Below are positions 41,171-54,502 of a stretch of 64,000 bases of DNA, piece after piece. A program made the translations under genes and the position numbers. Origin of the DNA: Escherichia coli (GTDB lineage: Bacteria; Pseudomonadota; Gammaproteobacteria; Enterobacterales; Enterobacteriaceae). The stretch is from the NCBI RefSeq assembly GCF_048403405.1, contig NZ_CP183129.1. One strand, 5' to 3'. Position 1 is the first letter of the stretch. Each line of letters begins with the position of its first letter. Below the pieces are notes generated by a model. It had not been told where the DNA came from. It saw only the letters and a list, made by a program, of their open reading frames with translations, and ran no database searches.

Positions 41171-41990
41171 GGCACTGTTGCAAATAGTCGGTGGTGATAA
41201 ACTTATCATCCCCTTTTGCTGATGGAGCTGCACATGAACCCATTCAAAGGCCGGCATTTTCAGCGTGACATCATTCTGTGGGCCGTACGCTGGTACTGCA
41301 AATACGGCATCAGTTACCATGAGCTGCAGGAGATGCTGGCTGAACGCGGAGTGAATGTCGATCACTCCACGATTTACCGCTGGGTTCAGCGTTATGCGCC
41401 TGAAATGGAAAAACGGCTGCGCTGGTACTGGCGTAACCCTTCCGATCTTTGCCCGTGGCACATGGATGAAACCTACGTGAAGGTCAATGGCCGCTGGGCG
41501 TATCTGTACCGGGCCGTCGACAGCCGGGGCCGCACTGTCGATTTTTATCTCTCCTCCCGTCGTAACAGCAAAGCTGCATACCGGTTTCTGGGTAAAATCC
41601 TCAACAACGTGAAGAAGTGGCAGATCCCACGATTCATCAACACGGATAAAGCGCCCGCCTATGGTCGCGCGCTTGCTCTGCTCAAACGCGAAGGCCGGTG
41701 CCCGTCTGACGTTGAACACCGACAGATTAAGTACCGGAACAACGTGATTGAATGCGATCATGGCAAACTGAAACGGATAATCAACGCCACGCTGGGATTT
41801 AAATCCATGAAGACGGCTTACGCCACCATCAAAGGTATTGAGGTGATGCGTGCACTACGCAAAGGCCAGGCCTCAGCATTTTATTATGGTGATCCCCTGG
41901 GCGAAATGCGCCTGGTAAGCAGAGTTTTTGAAATGTAAGGCCTTTGAATAAGACAAAAGGCTGCCTCATCGCTAACTTTGCAACAGTGCC
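41171..41990 (+). mobile_element. IS26 (IS6 family), 820-bp copy 1
   Basis: Termini GGCACTGTTGCAAA ... TTTGCAACAGTGCC; internal 234-aa Tnp26. Confidence 0.95.
41234..41938 (+). CDS. tnpA: IS26 transposase Tnp26 (variant with His at residue 29)
   Basis: MNPFKGRHFQRDIILWAVRWYCKYGISY(H)ELQEM... recognised as the IS26 transposase. Confidence 0.95.
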   Translation: MNPFKGRHFQRDIILWAVRWYCKYGISYHELQEMLAERGVNVDHSTIYRWVQRYAPEMEKRLRWYWRNPSDLCPWHMDETYVKVNGRWAYLYRAVDSRGRTVDFYLSSRRNSKAAYRFLGKILNNVKKWQIPRFINTDKAPAYGRALALLKREGRCPSDVEHRQIKYRNNVIECDHGKLKRIINATLGFKSMKTAYATIKGIEVMRALRKGQASAFYYGDPLGEMRLVSRVFEM

Positions 41991-42439
41991 AATTTTACGC
42001 CGTCGGCGGTACGCAGCCAGCGCGGGGATTTGAGTCCTTCCGTGAAATTCCAGACCAGCTCACACAGCAGCCCGGTCAGGGTTTGCTCCATTTTTGGTTC
42101 CGCCGGACGTTCCAGCAGAAGCTGGAGTAGTGCGAGGCAGTATTCGCACAAGGAATCAGGTTCGGAAATAAAGTGCTCTGGTGTGGCGGGAAGGGTATCC
42201 ACGGTCAGGCTTTCGGTAAGATGCGGTGGGATGGGGTCGTGTAGTGTGGGTTGCAGTAGCGCAAGAGCCGCGTGAAGCCGCCCGCAGAGCGCCAGTCGTA
42301 GCGCTGGATCGTCGGTTTCAATCAGGGTTTCGGCAAAGCGGGCGCAGTAGTCAGCAAGGACAGTGAAATCCGTGGTGGCATTGAAGGGGACGGTCAATAG
42401 ATCGAGTAAATCGCTGTCAGTGGTGAGGATTGTAGCCAT
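41972..42439 (-). CDS. hypothetical acidic protein; 3' end runs into IS26 (probably truncated)
   Basis: 155-aa ORF with a GGAGG Shine-Dalgarno upstream of the ATG at 42439; its last codons and stop lie inside the IS26 inverted repeat. No family recognised. Confidence 0.45.
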   Translation of the reverse strand: MATILTTDSDLLDLLTVPFNATTDFTVLADYCARFAETLIETDDPALRLALCGRLHAALALLQPTLHDPIPPHLTESLTVDTLPATPEHFISEPDSLCEYCLALLQLLLERPAEPKMEQTLTGLLCELVWNFTEGLKSPRWLRTADGVKLALLQS

Positions 42440-42785
42440 AGGGCAACCTCCGATAAGTGGGTGTTCAAGCCACCACCGGAGAGGCTAATCTCGCGGGTGG
42501 TGGAACCGGGCAGGGTTAGCCTTACCAGCCTTATCGGACACTGGCGCGTCTTGCGACGCCCCCGCCCGGCCCACCATTGAGATGTAACCGTGCGAACAAC
42601 ACAAAAAAAGACGCTGGCGCGTCATGTGTCGCCGATAAGATTTCTTCAGGAGGCTAATCCCGACGCCTGATTTTGCAGGCGCGGGAGAAAGATACTGCGA
42701 TTGGTCATGAGTGGCAAGGGCTACATCATGTTTACCGACATCTCACGCAAAAATACCCTGATTATTAATAGCGAAAATCAGTTTC

Positions 42786-45700
42786 TTATTTTGGCGGTAG
42801 CTTTTTGCGGTTCTTTGCCAACTGGAATCCTTCAGGTAACGGTTTGAATTTATCGCCGCCTTTAGGCCAGCGTTTTGCCCTGCTCTGAAATGCCCTTAAC
42901 GAGTCGATATCCAGCGTTGCAGCGACCACAAAGTCATTATCACCGCCCTTCACACGAGCAATATCACGCATAAAGGGTTCTTTTGCCGGGGAACGTACGC
43001 GACTATCGCCGTATTTTCGGTTATTCACTAAAATAGTATAGGCATGAATATCCAGCGCTGCTGATTCAATCAACGATGCAAACGTATCTAGATCTTTATT
43101 CCAGCTCAATACCATTAATGCATCGAGTGCGCCCTGAAAACGGATCCTCGCTTTACTATTCTGGAGTTCAGAGCAAATCATAACGCCAAAATTGACGCCG
43201 TGATGAATATATACCGGCTTACGTTGTTTAACATTAAGTGTCGAATCCCAAGACTTACCATAAGTTGAAAATAATGCCTCATCTTCACCTACGGCGGGTT
43301 CCAGCTTGGGTTGCCATATTTTGACACTCGCTGGATAGCCGAGTCTGTTATCTGAAAGGACAAGTACGGCCTCACTCTTCAGTTGATTATCGTCTAAGTG
43401 GCGGTATTCTGTTCCCGCAATTAGACTGATACCCGCCGAACTCAAACGATCAGCAATACTGTTAACCCAGCGTAACGGGATTGAAAGCTCAGGGAATAAA
43501 ACATAATCAGGTTTAGGAGATAGTTTCAATGTTGCATTAACCAGTTCAGAAATCCGCTGGTACCTTGAACGGGACAAGTTAGATTTATTGCAGGCCATTT
43601 TAGCCCAGTCGTCCTCCTCTGTTTTAATGCTGGTTAGCGCAACGACAACTTTATGTTTCCTGTCTGTGCCAATATGAATGAATTTCTTAGGCCGAGCTTT
43701 TTTTGTCGCTTCATCTGAGTCCTGCTCCGATGCTAGCAACGTCGGTTTGATCCATACTCCGCGTAATGCTTGAGTATATTTTGCCCAAATGGTGGACGGT
43801 CTCTCATCTGGTTTTTTGTCGGATGTGGAGGGTAATCCAACACATTCGGGGGCCAGTTCTGATATTTCAGCGGGTGTTAAAGGACGTGTAGGGAAAATGT
43901 AAGGTAGGTAACTTTCGTTTTTACGATTTCCTTTAGCCACTTTTTCCAGTCGGGTATTCTTGGTTGATTTCAAAAATAGCTTAATAACGTCAATATCAAT
44001 AAGCGATGAGTCGCTCATTAATTTCAGTATTTTAACTTCTTTTTTACTATCACGCTGATTAACAAGTTTTTCTGCCGACTGACTCTTTACGATCTGTTTA
44101 TAAGGTTCCTTTGCTAAATCAGCTCGAGCTACCAATGGCGCTTTTAAATAAAAATCTGCTGAATCAAAGCGAAGATCCAGTAAATCCTTTAGATTCGTCA
44201 GACTTTGTGAAATATGATTAAAAAATGTATCCGCAAGGCACTCTTCTTTCTTTGAACGTTTATCAAGAAATAATCTGTCAGGACTGTAATATCGTGTCGC
44301 TGCATCAACAAATAGCCAGCTTAATGTGCCTTTTATACAGCGCCAAAGATCATTTACTGCTCGAGTTTTGCAACCATTTATATTCACTTCCTTACCTGAA
44401 GTAATCACCGATGCCAACAGGTTGATGGATTCGTAAGCTTTAAGTACAATTTTTTCCGCGTGCTGCCATTCATTCATACTGATAGCAAAGCCAAGCAGCC
44501 TTGGCAGATAACTAAAATGTGCAAATAGATTATCAGCCCTAAGAATATGGTTGTAGGCAAACTGATAAAACTCTTCCCGCTGTTCTTTCCATTCACTTGG
44601 AGGCAGATCTCGTGCCAGTGTTTCAACGTAGCGTAATTGCAGTGACCAGCCCAAACGACGAATGGTTAATCCATCCGCACGGCGCAGAGTATCGGCATTT
44701 TCACCTACACTACCGGCAGCGGAAAGGACTTTAGCTGCGGTGGAGTGTTCCAGTTGATCCGGTGAAGGCATCAAGCGGTGTTCACTAGAAAGCTCGTAGA
44801 TCTCCTTTTCGATACTGTCGAGCAGGTCTATTCCAGCCCTCCCTTGAAGCACGAAAAGTTTTTGCTTATCGGATTGTAACTGGATGGTGGTCTTACCCTG
44901 GAAATGCTCGCCCTGCTGTATTTGCCATATTTGTTTTTGCTCGTTTTTCAAATAAACGCAATCATTGCCAAGCCTATCTTGCAGCAATAACATAAATTCG
45001 TGATTATTAGTAATTGTCCCTGTATCGCGTATTACAAGGAACATATCATCGACATAACGACCGTAGTGAATTGGTGATAGTTTTTCAATGACTAATTTAT
45101 CCCAATGGTGTAGCAATATATTTGAAATGATCCGACTGGCTGTTAATCCAATGACCAGACCACCATTAATAACAGGTGTTTTGTACGCTATTTTCTTTCC
45201 AAATGCCGCTGCGCCGTCAGACCAGTGCTTTAAGAATACTGCTAACTGTGCAGTAAACGCTTTTTCATCCTCAGTCAGTTTTATGTTTAGTGTGTTATAG
45301 AGATCATCAGAGGTTATAGCCAGTGGATCAATAAAATGATAGTAACTTTTTAAATCCAGTGAGGCGGCGATAATGTCACGATCTTTTTCCAACTCGTCAC
45401 GTATAGCTTTTAAGCCATCACCACGCCATTTTTGGTAGGGCTGGAAGTAGGGGCTAAAAGAACCCACGGCACTGATATGGAATGGATTATCCTGCTCATT
45501 GCTAAATAATTCATCATTACGAATACGCTTTAGCCGCGCGCCATAGCAACAGTTATCTAAGCTGGCATCAAATTTATGCCCGACCATGTTAATCCATAGT
45601 GCAGAGATAATGTGACTATCAACCGGGAAGTCACCAATAATACGAAACTCTGGTATCAGATCAAAATTATTAAATAAATGGTCGGCTGCTCGTTTAGGAT

Positions 45701-45995
45701 TAGAAAAGTGGACGTGTCCATTTTGGGATTCATGTTTTTTCTTTGTGGTTAATTTTTTCGGTAACAAACGAAATTTGCCAATCAACTTCTTATTGCTACT
45801 GAATCCATCTTCGCTCTGCAAAAGATCTAAGAGTTTTTGCAGGTTTTCAAGTAATTCCTGCTCATACTCGGCAAATTTGATAGCAACAGGAAATGTATTC
45901 TCAAAGAAGCTATCGGCTTTTGCTTTCCGGTAAGCGACCAGAAGGTCTTCAATCGTCAGATCATCCCAGCCAGTGAAAATTGCCTGATATGTCAT
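42786..45995 (-). CDS. reverse transcriptase-nitrilase fusion protein (DRT type 1 / UG1-like defence-associated RT)
   Basis: 1069-aa ORF with AAGGA Shine-Dalgarno. RT motif A ASLDLKSYYHFID, motif B GGLVIGLTASRIISNILL, motif C RYVDDMFLV (nt 45033-45059); C-terminal CN-hydrolase domain with FPELS (Glu836), VKIWQPK and GVMICSEL (Cys941, nt 43173-43175). Confidence 0.85.
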   Translation of the reverse strand: MTYQAIFTGWDDLTIEDLLVAYRKAKADSFFENTFPVAIKFAEYEQELLENLQKLLDLLQSEDGFSSNKKLIGKFRLLPKKLTTKKKHESQNGHVHFSNPKRAADHLFNNFDLIPEFRIIGDFPVDSHIISALWINMVGHKFDASLDNCCYGARLKRIRNDELFSNEQDNPFHISAVGSFSPYFQPYQKWRGDGLKAIRDELEKDRDIIAASLDLKSYYHFIDPLAITSDDLYNTLNIKLTEDEKAFTAQLAVFLKHWSDGAAAFGKKIAYKTPVINGGLVIGLTASRIISNILLHHWDKLVIEKLSPIHYGRYVDDMFLVIRDTGTITNNHEFMLLLQDRLGNDCVYLKNEQKQIWQIQQGEHFQGKTTIQLQSDKQKLFVLQGRAGIDLLDSIEKEIYELSSEHRLMPSPDQLEHSTAAKVLSAAGSVGENADTLRRADGLTIRRLGWSLQLRYVETLARDLPPSEWKEQREEFYQFAYNHILRADNLFAHFSYLPRLLGFAISMNEWQHAEKIVLKAYESINLLASVITSGKEVNINGCKTRAVNDLWRCIKGTLSWLFVDAATRYYSPDRLFLDKRSKKEECLADTFFNHISQSLTNLKDLLDLRFDSADFYLKAPLVARADLAKEPYKQIVKSQSAEKLVNQRDSKKEVKILKLMSDSSLIDIDVIKLFLKSTKNTRLEKVAKGNRKNESYLPYIFPTRPLTPAEISELAPECVGLPSTSDKKPDERPSTIWAKYTQALRGVWIKPTLLASEQDSDEATKKARPKKFIHIGTDRKHKVVVALTSIKTEEDDWAKMACNKSNLSRSRYQRISELVNATLKLSPKPDYVLFPELSIPLRWVNSIADRLSSAGISLIAGTEYRHLDDNQLKSEAVLVLSDNRLGYPASVKIWQPKLEPAVGEDEALFSTYGKSWDSTLNVKQRKPVYIHHGVNFGVMICSELQNSKARIRFQGALDALMVLSWNKDLDTFASLIESAALDIHAYTILVNNRKYGDSRVRSPAKEPFMRDIARVKGGDNDFVVAATLDIDSLRAFQSRAKRWPKGGDKFKPLPEGFQLAKNRKKLPPK

Positions 45996-46289
45996 GCGTT
46001 ATCGTCCTTAGATTACAGTCTGTACAGAATTAGCCAGCCGTTTCATGCCCGAAGGGGGGCTCTTGACACCAGTAATCCATCAGTGAGGCTGGCAATAATT
46101 TTGATTTGTATCCATGTTACACGCTCCCCGCAACCAGTCCGAGCATATATTTGTCACATTTTTCCCGAAAGTGATTAAGTTTGAATTTTTTGTTTAATGT
46201 CGATTTTTAGTCGACAAAATGAGGAATAAGTAAACTATTTCTTGCTGTGGCGTATCCCTGAATCTACACTGGTTTAAATATTTGTACTA

Positions 46290-47093
46290 ATGTCTATTCA
46301 GAGGCGACAGTTGCCAAACTATCTAAACTGGCTGATGCAGCACACGCTACCCGGCCAGGTGCTGCTCCAGTCATGGCTTACCCGCAACGGCATAGATCGT
46401 AAGCTCTCTTATCTCTATGTGAAGAATGGCTGGCTCAGGCGGATCGCTCACGGCGTATACTGCCGGACGGGCCGTGAGCCGGATTGGGTAGACGCGGTTT
46501 ACTGCCTTCAAACACAGTGGGAAAAGCCTGTTCGGGTGGCGGGGCTAACCAGCCTTGCGCTTCAGGGCCATGCGCACTATACCGAACCGGGTAAGCCGCA
46601 GGTCTGGCTCGCGCTTCCGGCTTACGTTAAGCTGCCGGGATGGTTTGCTGCCTTCGAACAATCTGCAACATTTATCACGCTGTATACATCGGGGCTTACC
46701 GTAGATGTAACGTCATTGACTACGGAACTGAAAATTGGCGACCGCCAGTTAGCAGGCAGTGCCCCGGAACTGGCCGCGTATGAGATCGCCTGCGGCGTTC
46801 CTTCGTTGATATCGTTCGAACATGCCGATGCTCTGTTTCAGGGGATGAATCTTCTCAGCCCACGCAAATTGCAGGCACTGCTTCGCGCCAGCCATTCGGT
46901 TAAAACCAACCGGGTGATGCTTTACCTTGCCCGGCGTAATGGACACCCTTATTTTCAGTATATTGATCAAAGCGGTATAGAAACAGGTACGGGAAAGCGG
47001 CAAATCATACCCGGCGGCTGGCTGGAGCCGGATTATCAAATTACTGTTCCACGCGCATTTAAACCGGAAGGAGTCGAAGATGGATCTGCGTGA
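46290..47093 (+). CDS. AbiEi-like antitoxin / transcriptional regulator (type IV TA)
   Basis: 267-aa ORF immediately upstream of, and overlapping by 14 bp, an AbiEii-like nucleotidyltransferase gene; N-terminal wHTH-like region with an R-x-x-x-G-V-Y motif. No clear Shine-Dalgarno, so the start is uncertain. Confidence 0.65.
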   Translation: MSIQRRQLPNYLNWLMQHTLPGQVLLQSWLTRNGIDRKLSYLYVKNGWLRRIAHGVYCRTGREPDWVDAVYCLQTQWEKPVRVAGLTSLALQGHAHYTEPGKPQVWLALPAYVKLPGWFAAFEQSATFITLYTSGLTVDVTSLTTELKIGDRQLAGSAPELAAYEIACGVPSLISFEHADALFQGMNLLSPRKLQALLRASHSVKTNRVMLYLARRNGHPYFQYIDQSGIETGTGKRQIIPGGWLEPDYQITVPRAFKPEGVEDGSA

Positions 47094-48000
47094 TAGCTAT
47101 GCCCGGCAGGTCAAACTGTTGATGGCCGCTCTGCCGTATGTGGCGAAGGAGTCCTGTTTCGCGTTGAAAGGCGGCACCGCAATCAATTTGTTTGTGCAGG
47201 ATTTTCCCCGTCTGTCGGTGGATATTGATCTGGCGTACAAGAGCTTTGCGGATCGCGATACTGATTTGGCGGCTATCAACGACGCTTTGAAGAGGATTAC
47301 TGCATCGCTGAACGGCAGACCGGGGATCACCGCGATTCGGCAGGAAAATAAAGCGGATGAAAAGCGCATCATTGTGAATACCGCTGATGCAAAGATTAAG
47401 ATCGAGGTTAGCCCGGTCTGGCGCGGGCTGTTGTTGCCTCCGGCAGAAATGCCTGTGTGCGAACGTGTGGAAATGGAGTATGGCTTCACCACCATGAGTG
47501 TCGTCTCGCTGGCGGATCTTTATGGCGGTAAAATCTGCGCTGCGCTTGATCGTCAGCACCCGCGCGATCTGTTTGATGTGCTGAATATGCTGGAGAAACC
47601 GGGACTGATGCGGGAGATCTTTGACGGTTTTCTTTGTTATCTGGCAGGCCATCCCCGCCCCATCGCCGAGTTGCTGGCTCCAAACTGGGATACAGAGCGG
47701 ATCGCCACGTTGTACGCGCAGGAATTTTCGGGGATGACTCAGCAGGAAACGTCGCTGGAATCGCTGCTGTCAGTAACGACTTTGCTGCCGCAGGCGTTGA
47801 AGTCACATCTTACGGATCTGGATCGCGAGTTCTTGCTCAGTTTTAAGCAAAACAGCCCTGACTGGTCGCGGTATCGCTATCCTGAAATTCAGCATCTTCC
47901 GGCTATTCGCTGGAAGCAACGTAATCTGGCGGTGCTGAAAGATAAAAATCCGGCGAAGTATGTGGCGGCGGTGAATAAGCTAGAGAGGGTGCTGGCGTAA
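47080..48000 (+). CDS. AbiEii-like nucleotidyltransferase toxin (DUF1814 family)
   Basis: 306-aa ORF with GGAG Shine-Dalgarno; N-terminal nucleotidyltransferase motif LKGGTAINLF...LSVDIDLAY typical of AbiEii/AbiGii toxins. Confidence 0.8.
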   Translation: MDLRDSYARQVKLLMAALPYVAKESCFALKGGTAINLFVQDFPRLSVDIDLAYKSFADRDTDLAAINDALKRITASLNGRPGITAIRQENKADEKRIIVNTADAKIKIEVSPVWRGLLLPPAEMPVCERVEMEYGFTTMSVVSLADLYGGKICAALDRQHPRDLFDVLNMLEKPGLMREIFDGFLCYLAGHPRPIAELLAPNWDTERIATLYAQEFSGMTQQETSLESLLSVTTLLPQALKSHLTDLDREFLLSFKQNSPDWSRYRYPEIQHLPAIRWKQRNLAVLKDKNPAKYVAAVNKLERVLA

Positions 48001-48364
48001 TCAATAGACCAGCATTAATCACGGATGATTACCAATCAGACAGATATGGTTAAATCATCGAATTCATAATTAATACTTTTTCTTACGCCGCTGAACAGCT
48101 TGAAAAGGATACATATTTTAAATATCAGTGAAGTGGACAGTTTATTGCCGTTATTAATAGAGATGGAGGAATAAATACGCGTATTCTACTATTGCAACAA
48201 AAACAACGATGATGATCAGTTTTCATAATGAAGTAACCTGACAGATATAAAAATGTTGATTGAGGCTCAATGCCCGGATGAAGGTTGTCGAGGGAGCCAG
48301 GTGGTTTTTTCTTTTGGGTGATCTCCATTGCTGGATAGTCCCCTCTTTCTCGCTCAAAGCAGAC

Positions 48365-48689
48365 TGTACTGCACCCATTTTGTTGGACGATGAAATGGAA
48401 TAGCCCCTAATATGTCAAAGCCAAAATACCCTTTTGAAAAGCGCCTTGAAGTCGTGAATCACTACTTCACAACTGATGATGGTTACAGGATCATCTCGGC
48501 ACGTTTTGGTGTCCCCCGAACCCAGGTCAGGACATGGGTTGCCCTCTATGAAAAACATGGAGAAAAAGGTTTAATTCCCAAACCTAAAGGCGTTAGTGCT
48601 GATCCAGAGTTGCGTATTAAGGTCGTGAAAGCTGTGATCGAGCAGCACATGTCCCTTAATCAGGCTGCTGCTCACTTTATGCTTGCTGG
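48365..48689 (+). mobile_element. IS150 5' fragment (325 bp), truncated by IS26
   Basis: Begins with the IS150 terminal repeat TGTACTGCACCCATTTTG and is identical in protein sequence to the start of insJ in the full copy at 27720-29162; ends abruptly at the IS26 terminus. Confidence 0.9.
48412..48689 (+). pseudogene. insJ: insJ fragment (first ~92 codons of IS150 OrfA)
   Basis: MSKPKYPFEKR...AAAHFMLAG, then the frame reads into IS26. Confidence 0.85.
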
Positions 48690-49509
48690 GGCACTGTTGC
48701 AAATAGTCGGTGGTGATAAACTTATCATCCCCTTTTGCTGATGGAGCTGCACATGAACCCATTCAAAGGCCGGCATTTTCAGCGTGACATCATTCTGTGG
48801 GCCGTACGCTGGTACTGCAAATACGGCATCAGTTACCGTGAGCTGCAGGAGATGCTGGCTGAACGCGGAGTGAATGTCGATCACTCCACGATTTACCGCT
48901 GGGTTCAGCGTTATGCGCCTGAAATGGAAAAACGGCTGCGCTGGTACTGGCGTAACCCTTCCGATCTTTGCCCGTGGCACATGGATGAAACCTACGTGAA
49001 GGTCAATGGCCGCTGGGCGTATCTGTACCGGGCCGTCGACAGCCGGGGCCGCACTGTCGATTTTTATCTCTCCTCCCGTCGTAACAGCAAAGCTGCATAC
49101 CGGTTTCTGGGTAAAATCCTCAACAACGTGAAGAAGTGGCAGATCCCACGATTCATCAACACGGATAAAGCGCCCGCCTATGGTCGCGCGCTTGCTCTGC
49201 TCAAACGCGAAGGCCGGTGCCCGTCTGACGTTGAACACCGACAGATTAAGTACCGGAACAACGTGATTGAATGCGATCATGGCAAACTGAAACGGATAAT
49301 CAACGCCACGCTGGGATTTAAATCCATGAAGACGGCTTACGCCACCATCAAAGGTATTGAGGTGATGCGTGCACTACGCAAAGGCCAGGCCTCAGCATTT
49401 TATTATGGTGATCCCCTGGGCGAAATGCGCCTGGTAAGCAGAGTTTTTGAAATGTAAGGCCTTTGAATAAGACAAAAGGCTGCCTCATCGCTAACTTTGC
49501 AACAGTGCC
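48690..49509 (+). mobile_element. IS26 (IS6 family), 820-bp copy 2
   Basis: Same termini as copy 1, same orientation; one nucleotide differs from copy 1 (G at 48838 versus A at 41319). Confidence 0.95.
48753..49457 (+). CDS. tnpA: IS26 transposase Tnp26
   Basis: 234-aa ORF with ...GISYRELQEM..., the form recalled as canonical for Tnp26. Confidence 0.95.
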   Translation: MNPFKGRHFQRDIILWAVRWYCKYGISYRELQEMLAERGVNVDHSTIYRWVQRYAPEMEKRLRWYWRNPSDLCPWHMDETYVKVNGRWAYLYRAVDSRGRTVDFYLSSRRNSKAAYRFLGKILNNVKKWQIPRFINTDKAPAYGRALALLKREGRCPSDVEHRQIKYRNNVIECDHGKLKRIINATLGFKSMKTAYATIKGIEVMRALRKGQASAFYYGDPLGEMRLVSRVFEM

Positions 49510-51543
49510 AAACCGTTAGCGATTATGGTTCCGGCGTGGAATGAAACGGGCGTCATCGGCAATATGGCCGAGCTGGCGGCGACCACGCTCGACTATGAAA
49601 ACTATCATATCTTTGTTGGCACCTACCCCAACGACCCCGATACACAGCGTGATGTTGACGAAGTGTGCGCTCGCTTCCCGAACGTGCATAAGGTAGTCTG
49701 CGCGCGTCCTGGCCCCACCAGCAAAGCCGACTGCCTGAACAACGTGCTGGACGCCATCACCCAGTTTGAGCGTAGCGCCAATTTCGCTTTTGCTGGTTTT
49801 ATTCTGCATGACGCCGAAGACGTAATTTCACCGATGGAATTGCGTCTGTTCAACTATCTGGTCGAGCGTAAAGATCTGATTCAGATCCCGGTGTATCCGT
49901 TCGAACGCGAATGGACGCACTTCACCAGCATGACTTACATTGATGAGTTTTCAGAACTGCATGGCAAAGATGTTCCGGTGCGTGAAGCCCTCGCCGGACA
50001 AGTGCCCAGCGCAGGCGTCGGTACCTGTTTCAGCCGCCGCGCCGTGACCGCACTGTTAGCTGACGGTGACGGTATTGCTTTCGACGTGCAGAGTCTTACT
50101 GAAGATTACGACATTGGTTTCCGCCTGAAAGAAAAAGGTATGACGGAAATTTTTGTCCGTTTTCCGGTGGTGGACGAAGCCAAAGAACGCGAGCAGCGTA
50201 AATTTTTACAGCACGCGCGGACGTCAAACATGATCTGCATGCGCGAATATTTCCCTGATACCTTTTCGACTGCGGTTCGACAAAAATCTCGCTGGATCAT
50301 CGGCATTGTTTTCCAGGGCTTTAAAACCCACAAATGGACCTCCAGCCTGACGCTGAACTACTTTCTCTGGCGCGACCGCAAAGGGGCAATCAGTAACTTT
50401 GTCAGCTTTCTCGCGATGCTGGTGATGATCCAGCTTCTGCTGTTACTGGCGTATGAAAGTTTGTGGCCCGATGCCTGGCATTTCCTTTCTATTTTCAGCG
50501 GCAGCGCATGGTTAATGACCCTGCTGTGGCTAAACTTTGGTTTGATGGTTAACCGCATCGTGCAGCGGGTGATTTTTGTCACTGGCTACTACGGTCTGAC
50601 GCAGGGGCTGCTATCTGTCCTGCGTCTTTTCTGGGGCAACCTGATTAACTTCATGGCCAACTGGCGCGCGTTAAAACAGGTACTTCAACACGGCGATCCA
50701 CGTCGTGTCGCGTGGGATAAAACAACGCATGACTTCCCCAGCGTGACTGGCGATACCCGCTCGTTGCGCCCGTTAGGCCAAATTCTGCTGGAAAATCAGG
50801 TCATCACTGAAGAACAACTCGATACAGCACTGCGTAATCGCGTCGAAGGTCTACGCCTGGGCGGTTCAATGCTGATGCAGGGGCTGATTAGCGCCGAACA
50901 GCTGGCACAGGCGCTGGCAGAGCAAAACGGCGTGGCGTGGGAATCCATCGACGCCTGGCAGATCCCGTCCTCGCTGATTGCCGAAATGCCGGCCTCCGTG
51001 GCGCTGCATTATGCAGTGCTGCCGCTGCGTCTGGAAAATGATGAGTTAATTGTCGGCAGTGAAGATGGTATTGACCCGGTTTCGCTGGCGGCCCTGACGC
51101 GTAAAGTCGGACGCAAAGTGCGTTACGTCATTGTTCTGCGGGGACAAATTGTCACGGGGTTACGTCACTGGTATGCACGCCGACGCGGTCACGATCCGCG
51201 GGCAATGTTGTACAATGCGATTCAGCATCAGTGGCTCACGGAACAGCAGGCCGGTGAAATCTGGCGGCAATATGTGCCGCATCAGTTCCTGTTCGCCGAA
51301 ATACTGACCACGCTCGGTCATATTAATCGTTCAGCAATTAACGTGTTGTTATTGCGCCATGAACGCAGTTCTCTGCCGCTCGGCAAGTTTTTGGTCACCG
51401 AAGGCGTTATCAGCCAGGAAACGTTGGATCGCGTCCTGACAATTCAACGCGAATTACAAGTTTCGATGCAATCACTATTACTCAAAGCAGGTTTAAACAC
51501 AGAACAGGTTGCGCAACTGGAGTCCGAAAATGAAGGAGAATAA
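49510..51543 (+). pseudogene. nfrB: phage N4 adsorption protein B (glycosyltransferase family 2), 5'-truncated by IS26
   Basis: The frame is open from the IS26 junction; the first Met gives 672 aa against a recalled native length of about 745 aa, so N-terminal membrane segments and the promoter are missing. Confidence 0.85.
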
Positions 51544-54502
51544 CCTTAATCGCGTCATCGGATGGTCTGGTTTACTGCTGACGTCTTTATTGAGTACCAG
51601 CGCACTCGCAGACAATATCGGCACCAGCGCAGAAGAGCTGGGGCTGAGCGATTATCGCCATTTTGTTATTTATCCCCGTCTCGATAAGGCGCTGAAGGCA
51701 CAGAAAAATAACGACGAAGCAACCGCCATCCGCGAATTTGAATATATACACCAACAGGTGCCGGATAATATTCCGCTAACTTTATACCTTGCGGAAGCCT
51801 ATCGCCATTTTGGTCATGATGACCGGGCGCGGCTGTTGCTTGAGGATCAACTGAAACGTCACCCAGGAGATGCCCGACTTGAGCGCAGTCTGGCGGCTAT
51901 TCCAGTTGAAGTGAAAAGCGTTACGACTGTTGAAGAACTGCTTGCCCAGCAAAAAGCGTGCGACGCTGCGCCGACCCTGCGTTGTCGCAGTGAAGTCGGG
52001 CAGAATGCCCTGCGGCTGGCACAATTACCTGTCGCCAGAGCGCAACTGAACGATGCGACGTTTACTGCATCGCCGGAAGGAAAAACGCTGCGAACCGATC
52101 TGCTGCAACGCGCAATCTACCTGAAACAATGGTCCCAGGCAGATACGCTATACAATGAAACACGCCAGCAGAACACATTAAGCGCGGCAGAACGCCGCCA
52201 GTGGTTTGATGTGCTTCTTGCCGGGCATCTGGACGATCGGATCCTGGCGCTGCAATCACAGGGGATCTTCACCGATCCTCAGTCATATATTACTTACGCG
52301 ACCGCGCTGGCTTATCGTGGCGAAAAAGCACGCCTCCAGCATTATCTCATTGAAAATACGCCGCTATTTACCACGGACGCACAAGAGAAAAGTTGGCTCT
52401 ATCTGTTATCTAAATACAGCGCCAACCCCGTTCAGGCGTTGGCGAATTATACGGTACAGTTTGCCGACAACCACCAGTATGTTGTTGGCGCGACGCTACC
52501 GGTGCTGTTAAAAGAAGGTCAGTACGACGCAGCGCAAAAACTGCTCGCCACCCTCCCCGCCAATGAAATGCTTGAGGAGCGTTATACCGTTAGCGTGGCG
52601 ACCCATAACAAGGCTGAAGCTCTGCGTCTGGCACGATTGCTGTATCAGCAAGAACCGGCAAATCTTACCCGCCTGGATCAACTGACCTGGCAACTGATGC
52701 AGAACGAGCAGTCACGCGAAGCTGCCGATTTATTGCTGCAACGCTATCCTTTCCAGGGCGATGCGCGTGTCAGCCAGACTTTAATGGCGCGACTGGCGTC
52801 TCTGCTGGAAAGTCATCCTTACCTGGCAACTCCGGCGAAGGTGGCGATTTTATCGAAACCCTTACCGCTGGCGGAGCAACGTCAGTGGCAAAGTCAGTTG
52901 CCGGGTATTGCAGATAATTGCCCGGCAATAGTTCGCTTGCTGGGCGATATGTCGCCTTCCTACGATGCCGCCGCCTGGAACCGTCTGGCAAAGTGTTATC
53001 GGGACACGCTACCCGGTGTGGCGTTGTATGCATGGCTTCAGGCCGAACAACGACAACCGAACGCCTGGCAACATCGTGCGGTAGCCTATCAGGCGTATCA
53101 GGTTGAGGACTACGCCACCGCACTGGCGGCCTGGCAGAAAATCAGTCTTCACGACATGAGCAATGAGGATCTGCTTGCTGCTGCCAATACCGCCCAGGCG
53201 GCAGGAAATGGTGCGGCTCGCGATCGCTGGCTTCAGCAGGCAGAACAACGTGGGCTGGGAAACAATGCCCTCTACTGGTGGCTACATGCGCAACGTTACA
53301 TTCCTGGTCAGCCGGAACTCGCACTGAACGATCTCACGCGCTCAATCAATATTGCGCCTTCTGCCAACGCTTACGTTGCGCGGGCGACAATTTATCGCCA
53401 ACGTCATAATGTCCCGGCGGCGGTGAGTGATTTGCGCGCCGCACTGGAACTGGAACCGAATAATAGCAACACCCAAGCAGCGCTCGGTTACGCCTTGTGG
53501 GATAGCGGTGATATCGCACAGTCGCGGGAAATGCTCGAACAGGCGCATAAAGGGCTACCGGACGATCCGGCACTTATCCGACAACTGGCCTACGTGAACC
53601 AGCGTCTGGATGACATGCCTGCGACGCAGCACTACGCCCGGCTGGTGATTGATGACATTGATAATCAGGCGCTGATAACCCCACTGACCCCAGAGCAAAA
53701 TCAGCAACGCTTCAATTTCCGCCGTCTGCATGAGGAGGTCGGTCGCCGCTGGACGTTCAGTTTCGATTCTTCCATCGGCTTGCGTTCCGGCGCGATGAGT
53801 ACCGCTAACAATAATGTCGGCGGCGCAGCGCCAGGGAAAAGCTATCGTAGCTACGGGCAACTGGAAGCCGAGTACCGCATCGGACGCAATATGCTGCTGG
53901 AAGGCGACCTGCTCTCAGTTTATAGCCGCGTCTTTGCCGATACCGGAGAAAACGGGGTGATGATGCCGGTGAAAAATCCGATGTCCGGCACCGGTCTGCG
54001 CTGGAAGCCGCTGCGCGATCAGATCGTTTTCCTCGCCGTCGAACAGCAGTTGCCGCTGAACGGGCAAAATGGCGCATCCGATACCATGCTGCGCGCCAGC
54101 GCCTCATTCTTTAATGGCGGCAAATACAGCGACGAATGGCACCCGAACGGTTCAGGCTGGTTTGCCCAAAACCTGTACCTCGATGCGGCGCAATATGTCC
54201 GCCAGGATATTCAGGCGTGGACGGCAGATTATCGCGTAAGCTGGCATCAGAAGGTGGCGAACGGACAGACTATTGAGCCTTACGCTCACGTTCAGGACAA
54301 CGGTTATCGTGATAAAGGCACTCAGGGCGCGCAGCTTGGCGGTGTCGGGGTCCGCTGGAATATCTGGACCGGCGAGACGCACTACGACGCCTGGCCGCAC
54401 AAAGTCAGTCTCGGCGTCGAATATCAACATACCTTTAAGGCGATTAATCAACGTAACGGAGAGCGCAACAACGCGTTTCTCACCATTGGAGTGCACTGGT
54501 AA
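51530..54502 (+). CDS. nfrA: phage N4 adsorption protein A (outer membrane)
   Basis: Start at MKENNLNRVIGWSG; about 990 aa; overlaps the nfrB 3' end. Confidence 0.9.
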   Translation: MKENNLNRVIGWSGLLLTSLLSTSALADNIGTSAEELGLSDYRHFVIYPRLDKALKAQKNNDEATAIREFEYIHQQVPDNIPLTLYLAEAYRHFGHDDRARLLLEDQLKRHPGDARLERSLAAIPVEVKSVTTVEELLAQQKACDAAPTLRCRSEVGQNALRLAQLPVARAQLNDATFTASPEGKTLRTDLLQRAIYLKQWSQADTLYNETRQQNTLSAAERRQWFDVLLAGHLDDRILALQSQGIFTDPQSYITYATALAYRGEKARLQHYLIENTPLFTTDAQEKSWLYLLSKYSANPVQALANYTVQFADNHQYVVGATLPVLLKEGQYDAAQKLLATLPANEMLEERYTVSVATHNKAEALRLARLLYQQEPANLTRLDQLTWQLMQNEQSREAADLLLQRYPFQGDARVSQTLMARLASLLESHPYLATPAKVAILSKPLPLAEQRQWQSQLPGIADNCPAIVRLLGDMSPSYDAAAWNRLAKCYRDTLPGVALYAWLQAEQRQPNAWQHRAVAYQAYQVEDYATALAAWQKISLHDMSNEDLLAAANTAQAAGNGAARDRWLQQAEQRGLGNNALYWWLHAQRYIPGQPELALNDLTRSINIAPSANAYVARATIYRQRHNVPAAVSDLRAALELEPNNSNTQAALGYALWDSGDIAQSREMLEQAHKGLPDDPALIRQLAYVNQRLDDMPATQHYARLVIDDIDNQALITPLTPEQNQQRFNFRRLHEEVGRRWTFSFDSSIGLRSGAMSTANNNVGGAAPGKSYRSYGQLEAEYRIGRNMLLEGDLLSVYSRVFADTGENGVMMPVKNPMSGTGLRWKPLRDQIVFLAVEQQLPLNGQNGASDTMLRASASFFNGGKYSDEWHPNGSGWFAQNLYLDAAQYVRQDIQAWTADYRVSWHQKVANGQTIEPYAHVQDNGYRDKGTQGAQLGGVGVRWNIWTGETHYDAWPHKVSLGVEYQHTFKAINQRNGERNNAFLTIGVHW

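Follow-up and report, generated by a model that had tools for sequence, protein, structure and literature searches.

The abiE locus and its gene structure

Within the 64-kb stretch of Escherichia coli DNA that was analysed (the window), two co-oriented, overlapping genes encode the partners of an AbiE-family toxin-antitoxin pair. The features discussed below are the following, with positions counted along the window.

41171..41990, + strand: left IS26 copy, 820 bp, recognised by its terminal inverted repeats (context)
42786..45995, - strand: UG5-type RT-nitrilase gene, a separate defence module (context; PADLOC RT_UG5-nitrilase, E 0, 1034 bits)
46179..46216, + strand: distal 38-nt operator-like repeat unit (repeat search; 93-nt spacing)
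46242..46270, + strand: putative weak sigma-70 promoter, TTGCTG-17 nt-TACACT (inferred from sequence)
46272..46309, + strand: proximal 38-nt operator-like repeat unit (repeat search; conserved in five loci)
46311..47093, + strand: abiEi, AbiEi_3-type antitoxin and predicted autorepressor, 260 aa (Pfam, PADLOC, PGAP start, AF2/Foldseek)
47069..47072, + strand: GGAG Shine-Dalgarno of abiEii, within the 3' end of abiEi (sequence; 7 nt before ATG 47080)
47080..48000, + strand: abiEii, DUF1814/Pol-beta-type nucleotidyltransferase toxin, 306 aa (Pfam, PADLOC, 71-sequence alignment, AF2/Foldseek)
48690..49509, + strand: right IS26 copy, 820 bp, inserted into an IS150 fragment, recognised by its terminal inverted repeats (context)

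The preliminary description had reported a co-oriented pair with a 14-bp overlap, and the two open reading frames, at 46290..47093 (+, 267 aa counted from the ATG) and 47080..48000 (+, 306 aa), do share positions 47080-47093. Its antitoxin start at ATG 46290, on the other hand, gives way to TTG 46311, located 21 nt further downstream. This TTG is most likely the abiEi start because RefSeq/PGAP places the start there, 24/24 homologues begin at the equivalent residue, and an AGAGG Shine-Dalgarno sequence lies 6 nt upstream of it, while ATG 46290 has no Shine-Dalgarno sequence before it and is not conserved in Pectobacterium or Buttiauxella. On these grounds, ATG 46290 is probably not the start and was rejected.

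Translational coupling is implied by the 14-bp overlap and by the abiEii Shine-Dalgarno sequence, which falls inside the 3' end of abiEi. The two genes also overlap, by either 8 or 14 bp, in Pectobacterium, Buttiauxella, the E. coli paralogue, L008, and Serratia. Compared with three other alleles, dN/dS amounted to 0.08-0.14 for abiEi and 0.03-0.09 for abiEii; both are real genes under purifying selection.

Family and fold of the two proteins

The identification of the upstream product as an AbiEi-type protein was confirmed by matches to the Pfam models AbiEi_3_N (PF17194, E 4.5e-29, residues 12-97) and AbiEi_3 (PF11459, E 2.7e-35, residues 102-254) and to the PADLOC AbiEi model PDLC02227 (E 2.5e-79), and its gene lies immediately upstream of, and overlaps, a DUF1814 toxin gene. 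The model that had been named for this check, PF13338 (AbiEi_4), did not prove to be the right one, as it matched weakly (i-E 0.0046, 17.5 bits) over 17 residues (43-59) around the G-V-Y wing. Judged by these profiles, the antitoxin belongs to the AbiEi_3 (formerly DUF2893) branch and not to AbiEi_4. The G-V-Y motif noted earlier is present as HGVYCR at residues 54-59. The AF2 model of AbiEi (pLDDT 91) comprises, in helices (H) and strands (E), H3-18, E24-26, H27-32, H37-45, E49-53, and E56-59, followed by a mixed alpha/beta C-terminal domain. Foldseek aligned it over its full length with Rv2827c/MenA4 (1ZEL, E 3e-9, TM 0.59, 283 columns) and with S. agalactiae AbiEi (6Y8Q, E 1e-6).

The downstream product had been assigned to the AbiEii/DUF1814 family, and the profile searches agree, with matches to Pfam AbiEii (PF08843, COG2253; i-E 3.9e-35, residues 14-221) and to PADLOC AbiEii (PDLC02290, E 4.4e-116, 301/306 residues, 5-305). 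The two motifs quoted for it were likewise found, ALKGGTAINLF at residues 28-38 and LSVDIDLAY at residues 45-53. The family motifs have been defined as hG[G/S]-x15-DhD for I and II, K...R for III, and +DxxD for IV (Dy et al. 2014, PMC3985639). In AbiEii, motif I is G31-G32, directly preceded by K30; motif II comprises R44, S46, D48, and D50; motif III is K151...R158; and motif IV is R162-D163-L-F-D166, fitting +DxxD / R-D-x-x-D. The spacing from G31-G32 to D48-I-D50 is 15 residues, matching the published hGG-x15-DhD pattern. All four catalytic motifs are thus intact, and their residues are invariant or at least 90% conserved among 71 homologues; R44, S46, D48, D50, K151, R158, and D166 are invariant or nearly so down to 34% identity. 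These conserved residues correspond to those essential for toxicity in S. agalactiae AbiEii, where mutations of R63, D67, D69, K173, R180, and D192 abolish toxicity (PMC3985639), and to S67, D69, K171, and D186 of MenT4, the K-to-D spacing being 15 residues in both AbiEii and MenT4.

The AF2 model of AbiEii (pLDDT 96.5, pTM 0.93) gave MenT4 (6Y56, E 3.2e-8, prob 1.00) as its top Foldseek match in the PDB, with a moderate TM of 0.57/0.59, and also recovered MenT1. The predicted structure thus has the bi-lobed MenT/JHP933-type nucleotidyltransferase fold, at moderate TM. Sequence-only searches of the PDB, run with the single proteins and with profiles of 21, 71, and 25 homologues, gave nothing significant, the sole family-related trace being JHP933 (E 0.1) on motif IV. 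Since no significant relative was found in the PDB by sequence, the residue correspondences with MenT4 rest on motif spacing and on the fold match, with a TM of ~0.58. No NCBIfam model was found for AbiEi or AbiEii. Neither protein matched PHROGs, so that the AbiE pair is not typical phage cargo.

Genomic context and independence from the RT-nitrilase gene

The AbiE pair had been described as divergent from the RT-nitrilase gene, and the latter indeed lies on the opposite strand, across a gap of 315 bp measured to TTG 46311. The further claim of two separate defence modules stacked between the IS26 copies is upheld by the PADLOC matches, the IS26 boundaries, and the corresponding locus of the ST131 strain JJ1886. 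In JJ1886 the RT slot holds a type I restriction system, hsdRMS, and the AbiE module is unchanged; AbiE is therefore independent of the RT. Among such slot variants, homology begins ~220 bp upstream of abiEi and ends right at the abiEii stop codon. The adjacency of the genes, their divergent transcription, and the common 315-bp control region could suggest a single defence system of three genes, AbiEi/AbiEii plus the RT-nitrilase, but besides the exchange of the RT slot in JJ1886, the pair occurs in 832 genomes versus 260 for the RT-nitrilase, it is flanked by unrelated genes in Pectobacterium, Buttiauxella, and Serratia and at a second E. coli locus, and its GC content is 53-54% versus 41.8% for the RT-nitrilase gene. 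Moreover, in S. meliloti a UG5 RT-nitrilase provides defence on its own (doi 10.64898/2025.12.16.694600). On the slot exchange, genome counts, neighbours, and GC content, we discarded the three-gene reading and give it almost no chance of being correct.

The native locus of the AbiE pair is the tRNA-Thr/proA island, and the pair is found there in 832/5426 complete E. coli genomes (about 15%). In PLSDB, the one full match is to strain MS 69-1, whose 64-kb 'plasmid' is a duplicate of chromosomal DNA, so that the pair is not plasmid-borne in that database. In the window, a 6.7-kb piece of the island now sits in the cus-nfr locus between the two IS26 copies, which are in direct orientation and differ by 1 nt. 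Neither of the IS26 junctions, nor the whole 11-kb arrangement, is present in the 5426 complete E. coli genomes. The relocation removed cusRS and left nfrB, which belongs to the phage N4 receptor pathway, truncated. This IS26-flanked relocation into cus-nfr is new here, and the window thus shows the capture by IS26 of a chromosomal fragment carrying two defence systems and its transfer to another locus.

The island surrounding the pair is degraded, with a truncated integrase, pseudogenes, and IS150 and IS26 insertions. Such surroundings would also be expected if the pair were itself a decaying, non-functional remnant. Against this, neither frame is disrupted, no catalytic residue has been lost, dN/dS is 0.03-0.14, and full-length conservation across the 832 genomes is 95-100%; a decayed pseudogene pair is very improbable, and was rejected on this evidence.

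The upstream region

Upstream of abiEi lie the two 38-nt operator-like units. The distal unit contains the palindrome TGTCGA-N7-TCGACA at 46198-46216 and the proximal unit TGTCTA-N7-GCGACA at 46291-46309, the latter unit overlapping the AGAGG Shine-Dalgarno sequence just before the TTG start. The pattern TGTC-N11-GACA occurs twice in the 64-kb window, both times upstream of abiEi. Five loci, representing three or more genera, share the proximal unit. In the window, JJ1886, Pectobacterium, and L008, the sequence most similar to this unit is found upstream of it at a distance of exactly 93 nt. JJ1886 has a degenerate distal site, and Buttiauxella has none. The proximal site could be conserved simply because the 5'UTR and the ribosome-binding site are constrained.

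Scanning for promoter and terminator consensus sequences gave no promoter between the divergent genes and no terminator immediately behind abiEii. The candidate promoter between the two units is a 7/12 match, below the threshold of the scanning tool, and Pectobacterium has TTGTTA-17-TAAAAT at the aligned position. Autoregulation via inverted repeats in the promoter is known for the AbiEi of S. agalactiae, whose 23-bp repeats are separated by 3 bp, and for Rv2827c of M. tuberculosis, which has four repeats (PMC7319586). The layout predicted here, with two units 93 bp apart, is unlike either of them. The two-site operator is a prediction new to this analysis, and is open to direct testing.

Proposed mechanism and biological role

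Considering the family membership, motifs, and fold, we propose that the pair probably is an AbiE-family toxin-antitoxin operon of the AbiEi_3/AbiEii branch (MenA4-MenT4-like) that works as follows. A weak promoter ~40-70 nt upstream of abiEi would transcribe both genes, and the operon would be repressed by binding of AbiEi at the two repeat units, each with its TGTC-N11-GACA palindrome, the proximal one over the ribosome-binding site. The 14-bp overlap would couple translation of abiEii to that of abiEi. By homology, free AbiEii, a predicted Pol-beta-fold nucleotidyltransferase, would add nucleotides to tRNA 3'-CCA ends, as described for MenT toxins (PMC7450476; doi 10.64898/2026.01.19.700257), and aminoacylation of the modified tRNAs would be blocked, leading to a stop in translation and a reversible growth arrest. 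The C-terminal domain of AbiEi would neutralise the toxin. The favoured route is induced autophosphorylation of the invariant S46 of AbiEii, as in type VII, and an alternative is a non-interacting route such as that reported for MenA4-MenT4. The toxin would be freed once antitoxin is no longer supplied, either because a phage shuts off the host or because the island is lost, and the outcome may be abortive infection, post-segregational stabilisation of the island, or both.

Which of these two outcomes prevails bears on the role of the pair. The AbiE pair is constant while the adjacent slot varies, as seen in the genome counts and in the type I restriction system of JJ1886, and the homology boundaries enclose just the pair and its ~220-bp upstream region. 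In addition, AbiE stabilises plasmids (PMC3985639) and an ICE in S. suis (PMC11062541), and the S. agalactiae AbiE operon in E. coli gave no protection against 32 coliphages. These observations suggest that the pair may serve mainly for addiction or stabilisation, anchoring the tRNA-Thr island with its adjacent cargo, and not for phage defence, which we consider possible but somewhat doubtful. AbiE of L. lactis pNP40 does abort infection by 936-type phages (doi 10.64898/2026.01.19.700257), and other genera carry the pair in chromosomal defence neighbourhoods, with HNH plus Dcm, with Lamassu-like genes, or with BREX. A different E. coli AbiE, CFT073 c3681-82, altered the sensitivity to some phages (PMC12488582). 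The two roles are compatible and not mutually exclusive, and phage defence by this pair, or by the AbiEi_3 branch, is a putative role.

The 'type IV' label, which stems from Dy et al. 2014 (PMC3985639), is historical and now disputed, as the S. agalactiae prototype has been reassigned to type VII in a 2026 preprint (doi 10.64898/2026.01.19.700257). For MenA4-MenT4 the label continues to hold. Neutralisation might nonetheless be truly type IV-like here, with an antitoxin that neither binds nor modifies the toxin and acts through transcriptional control or the target only. MenA4 and MenT4 are the closest structures for the two proteins, and they are reported not to interact, MenT4 S67 is reportedly not phosphorylated, and rescue required the operon context (PMC7450476; doi 10.64898/2026.01.19.700257). 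These reports on the closest structural relatives also speak against the type VII step in our scheme. On the other hand, S46 of the present toxin, the equivalent of the phospho-acceptors MenT3 S78 and AbiEii T65, is invariant in the 71 homologues, the initial description of S. agalactiae AbiE as 'non-interacting' has since been overturned (doi 10.64898/2026.01.19.700257), and Serratia AbiE-A2 rescued growth from its toxin in trans (PMC7725324). Weighing both sides, we hold a type IV-like mode to be conceivable, with some reservation.

Beyond the proposed scheme, we can only speculate that AbiE and its ~220-bp upstream region anchor a cargo-swap slot of defence hotspot #33, in which AbiEi, through its two operators 93 bp apart in the common divergent control region, would also govern RT-nitrilase or hsdR, depending on which defence gene occupies the slot. 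The toxin would stabilise the cargo, and the IS26-flanked copy would be a case of the block being mobilised. Separately, AbiEi_3/MenA4-like neutralisation might be neither type IV nor type VII. We regard this extended reading as unlikely.

Comparison with known systems

This is a genuine AbiE toxin-antitoxin pair that was already catalogued, and its observation is therefore correct but ordinary. It is named in RefSeq (WP_001134469.1 and WP_000365809.1), detected by PADLOC and by DefenseFinder (AbiEii__AbiEi_3 and AbiEii__AbiEii), and mapped to a published E. coli hotspot, so that its description is of little importance beyond correct annotation. The hotspot in question, E. coli defence hotspot #33 (yagP-proA, tRNA-Thr; Hochhauser et al. 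2023, PMC10121019), is the native locus with the same genes; the window differs from it in that the island piece has moved between IS26 copies in the cus-nfr locus. A literature search on AbiE together with thrW found nothing. The pair is a common E. coli member of the AbiEi_3/MenAT4-like branch, and E. coli would be a convenient host for deciding between type IV and type VII.

Among relatives that have been tested, the closest is AbiE-2 of Serratia sp. ATCC 39006 (AbiE-A2/AbiE-T2, CWC46_RS04265/04260; Prodigiosinella confusarubida LacA), with full-length identities to this pair of 56% for the toxin (E 1e-117) and 47% for the antitoxin (E 1e-84). Hampton et al. 2020 (PMC7725324) proved it by experiment to be a toxin-antitoxin pair that works in E. 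coli, where the toxin lowered viable counts 10^6-fold. Growth was restored by the AbiEi_3-type antitoxin, whose gene turned out to be essential, and a disturbance of tRNA pools was seen. Both pairs have an AbiEi_3-type antitoxin, an AbiEii of ~305 aa, a gene overlap, and S46-x-D48 at equal numbering. In contrast, Serratia AbiE-2 occupies another chromosomal locus with no RT or IS26 nearby, and its promoter region lacks the TGTC-N11-GACA repeats.

Among solved structures, MenA4-MenT4 of M. tuberculosis (Rv2827c-Rv2826c; 1ZEL, 6Y56) come closest to the two partners, with 16-18% identity in structural alignment and no significant match at the sequence level. MenT4 and AbiEii have in common the S-x-D motif and the K-to-D spacing in the active site. 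MenA4 is a two-domain autorepressor acting at promoter inverted repeats, in an operator layout that differs from the one predicted here, and MenA4-MenT4 has the feature that MenA4 alone is toxic.

With the prototypes of the family, S. agalactiae SAG1284/1285 and L. lactis pNP40, the present pair shares the bicistronic overlapping operon, a wHTH antitoxin that is an autorepressor in the prototypes (6Y8Q) and predicted to be one here, and a DUF1814 toxin with motifs I-IV. The prototype antitoxin is of the COG5340/DUF4095 type, whereas the antitoxin here is AbiEi_3, which belongs to another Pfam clan, and the prototype operator consists of two adjacent repeats, in contrast to the two widely spaced units predicted here. 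Among these prototypes, abortive infection has been demonstrated for the lactococcal system only.

Gene pair and family assignment

The preliminary description had proposed two overlapping, co-oriented genes divergent from an RT gene, and two same-strand ORFs sharing 14 bp were confirmed, with the quoted motifs present in both products.

42786..45995, - strand, RT gene (UG5-type RT-nitrilase; PADLOC, E 0), neighbouring the pair
46198-46216, distal palindrome, TGTCGA-N7-TCGACA
between the repeat units, candidate weak promoter predicted from sequence, TTGCTG-17-TACACT
46291-46309, proximal palindrome, TGTCTA-N7-GCGACA
46290..47093, abiEi, upstream antitoxin gene
inside abiEi, 7 nt before ATG 47080, abiEii Shine-Dalgarno, GGAG
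47080..48000, abiEii, downstream toxin gene

The location of this GGAG within the upstream gene implies that abiEi and abiEii are probably translationally coupled. The abiEi start is most likely TTG 46311 (260 aa) rather than ATG 46290. RefSeq calls the start at this TTG, the equivalent residue is the N-terminus in 24/24 aligned AbiEi homologues, and AGAGG lies 6 nt 5' of it, with no similar sequence ahead of ATG 46290; the ATG is not conserved in Pectobacterium or Buttiauxella. Both genes are under purifying selection (dN/dS 0.03-0.14). At the AbiEii C-terminus (47995-48000), the E. coli protein ends in ...ERVLA, and other Enterobacterales orthologues carry three more residues (...LEQYF, 309 aa).

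The proposed AbiEii profile check on the downstream product returned a match to Pfam PF08843 (3.9e-35), together with a nearly full-length match to PADLOC PDLC02290 (4.4e-116). The antitoxin identity of the upstream product also held, but not through the model originally named: it matches AbiEi_3_N (PF17194, 4.5e-29), AbiEi_3 (PF11459, 2.7e-35) and PADLOC AbiEi PDLC02227 (2.5e-79), whereas PF13338 (AbiEi_4) aligns over 17 residues only (E 0.0046), centred on the G-V-Y wing. Since the latter match is weak and short and the AbiEi_3 matches are strong, the antitoxin belongs to the AbiEi_3 branch (formerly DUF2893), named as a COG5340 partner of DUF1814 toxins by Dy et al. 2014 (PMC3985639). At the level of profile matches, the family membership of both products is settled. 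RefSeq labels the pair as AbiEi-family antitoxin and AbiEii/AbiGii toxin. Its identification as an AbiE pair is right and has good support, and the pair was known before.

The IS26-flanked segment

The pair does lie in an IS26-borne segment, bounded by two 820-bp IS26 copies in direct orientation that differ by 1 nt. The 6.7 kb between them (41991-48689) are a fragment of the tRNA-Thr island, comprising a 155-aa hypothetical gene, a C4/isrK RNA region, an ash gene, RT, abiEi-abiEii, a ykgR remnant and an IS150 fragment.

41171-41990, left IS26
41972-42439 (-), conserved hypothetical protein, 155/156 aa (WP_000201184.1 in references)
42493-42581 (-), C4 antisense RNA, 71 bits
42604-42682 (-), isrK, 69 bits
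48365-48689 (+), IS150-type left end and part of its first ORF (insJ-like, MSKPKYPFEKRLEVV...)
48690-49509, right IS26
49525-51543 (+), nfrB
51509-54502, nfrA, intact

The segment is placed between cusC and a shortened nfrB, has no 8-bp target-site duplications, and neither the IS26 arrangement nor either junction occurs in any of 5426 complete E. coli genomes. Given this position, cusRS and the 5' end of nfrB would have been lost, and cusRS thus appears to have been deleted at the insertion site. The nfrB gene begins immediately after the right IS26, and its match to the NfrB equivalog profile begins at position 68, with ~67 N-terminal residues missing; truncation of this phage N4 receptor pathway gene could itself change phage susceptibility.

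The last ~7 codons of the hypothetical protein are IS26 end sequence, and the protein has no match in PHROGs. Between its gene and RT, adjoining an 'ash family' gene, the region 42493-42695 (-) carries the C4 and isrK matches, both above the Rfam gathering score, and a c4-a1b1 target element slightly below threshold. The C4 and isrK matches near the ash gene suggest that the island derives from a P4/P1-type immunity region, of a satellite or prophage, that has since decayed. The element at 48365-48689, which we take to be IS150 (RefSeq 'insJ' labels on the matches agree), was inserted downstream of the ykgR remnant and later cut by IS26.

Occurrence of the pair and its autonomy from the RT

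The full-length AbiE pair was found in 832/5426 complete E. coli genomes, as a single chromosomal copy in all carriers but MS 69-1, which holds an extra copy on a record labelled plasmid. This circular record ('plasmid unnamed3', NZ_CP146678.1, 64,057 bp) couples an exact second tRNA-Thr island region (AbiE, RT, pao and ecp genes) to phage tail genes; it may be an assembly artefact, or else chromosomal DNA that was excised or amplified. The native locus is an island adjoining tRNA-Thr and proA; a published map of E. coli defence islands, which lists AbiEii there, designates it hotspot #33 (yagP-proA) (PMC10121019).

The suggestion of two stacked modules proved right. RT-nitrilase occurs in only 260 genomes, and in ST131 JJ1886 (NC_022648.1 316122-322088) a type I R-M system (hsdRMS), divergent to abiEi, occupies the RT slot (window 42786-45995), with homology to the window running from ~46088 to the abiEii stop codon, where the exchange breakpoints lie. 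Downstream of the JJ1886 pair, a disrupted tyrosine recombinase stands instead of ykgR-yagP. Elsewhere, the neighbours are HNH and Dcm genes (Pectobacterium) or Lamassu-like genes (Buttiauxella), and GC content is 53-54% for AbiE against 41.8% for RT. Because the pair occurs without RT, among unrelated neighbours and with a differing GC content, it is an autonomous module, independent of the RT. A second E. coli AbiEi_3/AbiEii pair (L007, 6001-7684; antitoxin 46% identical to that of the window; cluster of 502 members) directly follows a BREX cluster (PglZ, BrxL) and a PLD-like gene and precedes an integrase.

Predicted control region

The pattern TGTC-N11-GACA occurs only twice within the 64-kb window, both times upstream of abiEi. 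The two palindromes make up the 3' portions of directly repeated 38-nt units, which agree at 27/38 positions. In the window, JJ1886, Pectobacterium and another AbiE-pair locus (L008), a search of the 300 nt upstream of the proximal unit places its best match exactly 93 nt away (20-27/38, against a mean of ~10), the distal site being degenerate in JJ1886. Buttiauxella has the proximal unit without a distal counterpart in the 300 nt searched upstream, and the repeats were not found upstream of the L007 pair. At the aligned promoter position Pectobacterium has TTGTTA-17-TAAAAT, and the proximal unit covers the Shine-Dalgarno of abiEi. As AbiEi and Rv2827c are known to bind promoter inverted repeats, we infer that the operon would be autorepressed through the predicted units. 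The layout of this putative operator is unlike both the S. agalactiae AbiEi and the Rv2827c cases, and the predicted two-unit control region is new.

Proposed mechanism and comparison with known systems

In the best-supported model, AbiEi would repress its own operon, the toxin would act as a nucleotidyltransferase lengthening tRNA 3'-CCA ends and arresting translation, the AbiEi C-terminal domain would neutralise it, and failure of antitoxin supply would set it free. A serious alternative is that the pair serves to stabilise the island instead of defending against phages; S. agalactiae AbiE gave no protection against 32 phages in E. coli. S. agalactiae AbiE, the prototype, is now reported as type VII, with autophosphorylation induced by the antitoxin (preprint, doi 10.64898/2026.01.19.700257), and S46 is invariant among the aligned homologues of the window AbiEii.

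An exhaustive search gave 6465 relatives, from which an AbiEii alignment of 71 sequences (down to 34% identity) was built. Invariant or >=90% conserved are K30-G31-G32, R44, S46, D48, D50, E109, K151, R158, R162-D163 and D166, and the pattern GG-x15-DxD, K...R, RDxxD is the exact motif I-IV definition. The sites of toxicity-abolishing mutations in S. agalactiae AbiEii have counterparts among these residues (PMC3985639). MenT4 S67, D69, K171 and D186 correspond to S46-x-D48, K151 and D166, with an identical K-to-D spacing of 15 residues.

PDB searches by sequence alone gave no significant relative of either protein. The AF2 model of AbiEi (pLDDT 91) has a wHTH of the expected topology and then a C-terminal domain, and best matches Rv2827c (MenA4; 1ZEL, E 3e-9, 283 aligned columns) and S. 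agalactiae AbiEi (6Y8Q, E 1e-6). That of AbiEii (pLDDT 96.5) best matches MenT4 (Rv2826c; 6Y56, E 3e-8, TM 0.57-0.59), MenT1 being recovered too. Both partners therefore indicate the cognate M. tuberculosis pair MenA4-MenT4, which on these predicted folds is the closest solved structural pair, and which reportedly shows neither interaction nor phosphorylation.

The closest tested relative is AbiE-2 of Serratia sp. ATCC 39006, whose locus was retrieved via the published AbiE-T2 cloning primer (supplement, PMC7725324). Over their full length, its toxin and AbiEi_3-type antitoxin are 56% and 47% identical to those of the window. Serratia AbiE-2 is a demonstrated toxin-antitoxin pair, in which the toxin lowers the viable count of E. 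coli 10^6-fold, the cognate antitoxin rescues growth, the antitoxin gene is essential, and tRNA levels are perturbed (PMC7725324).
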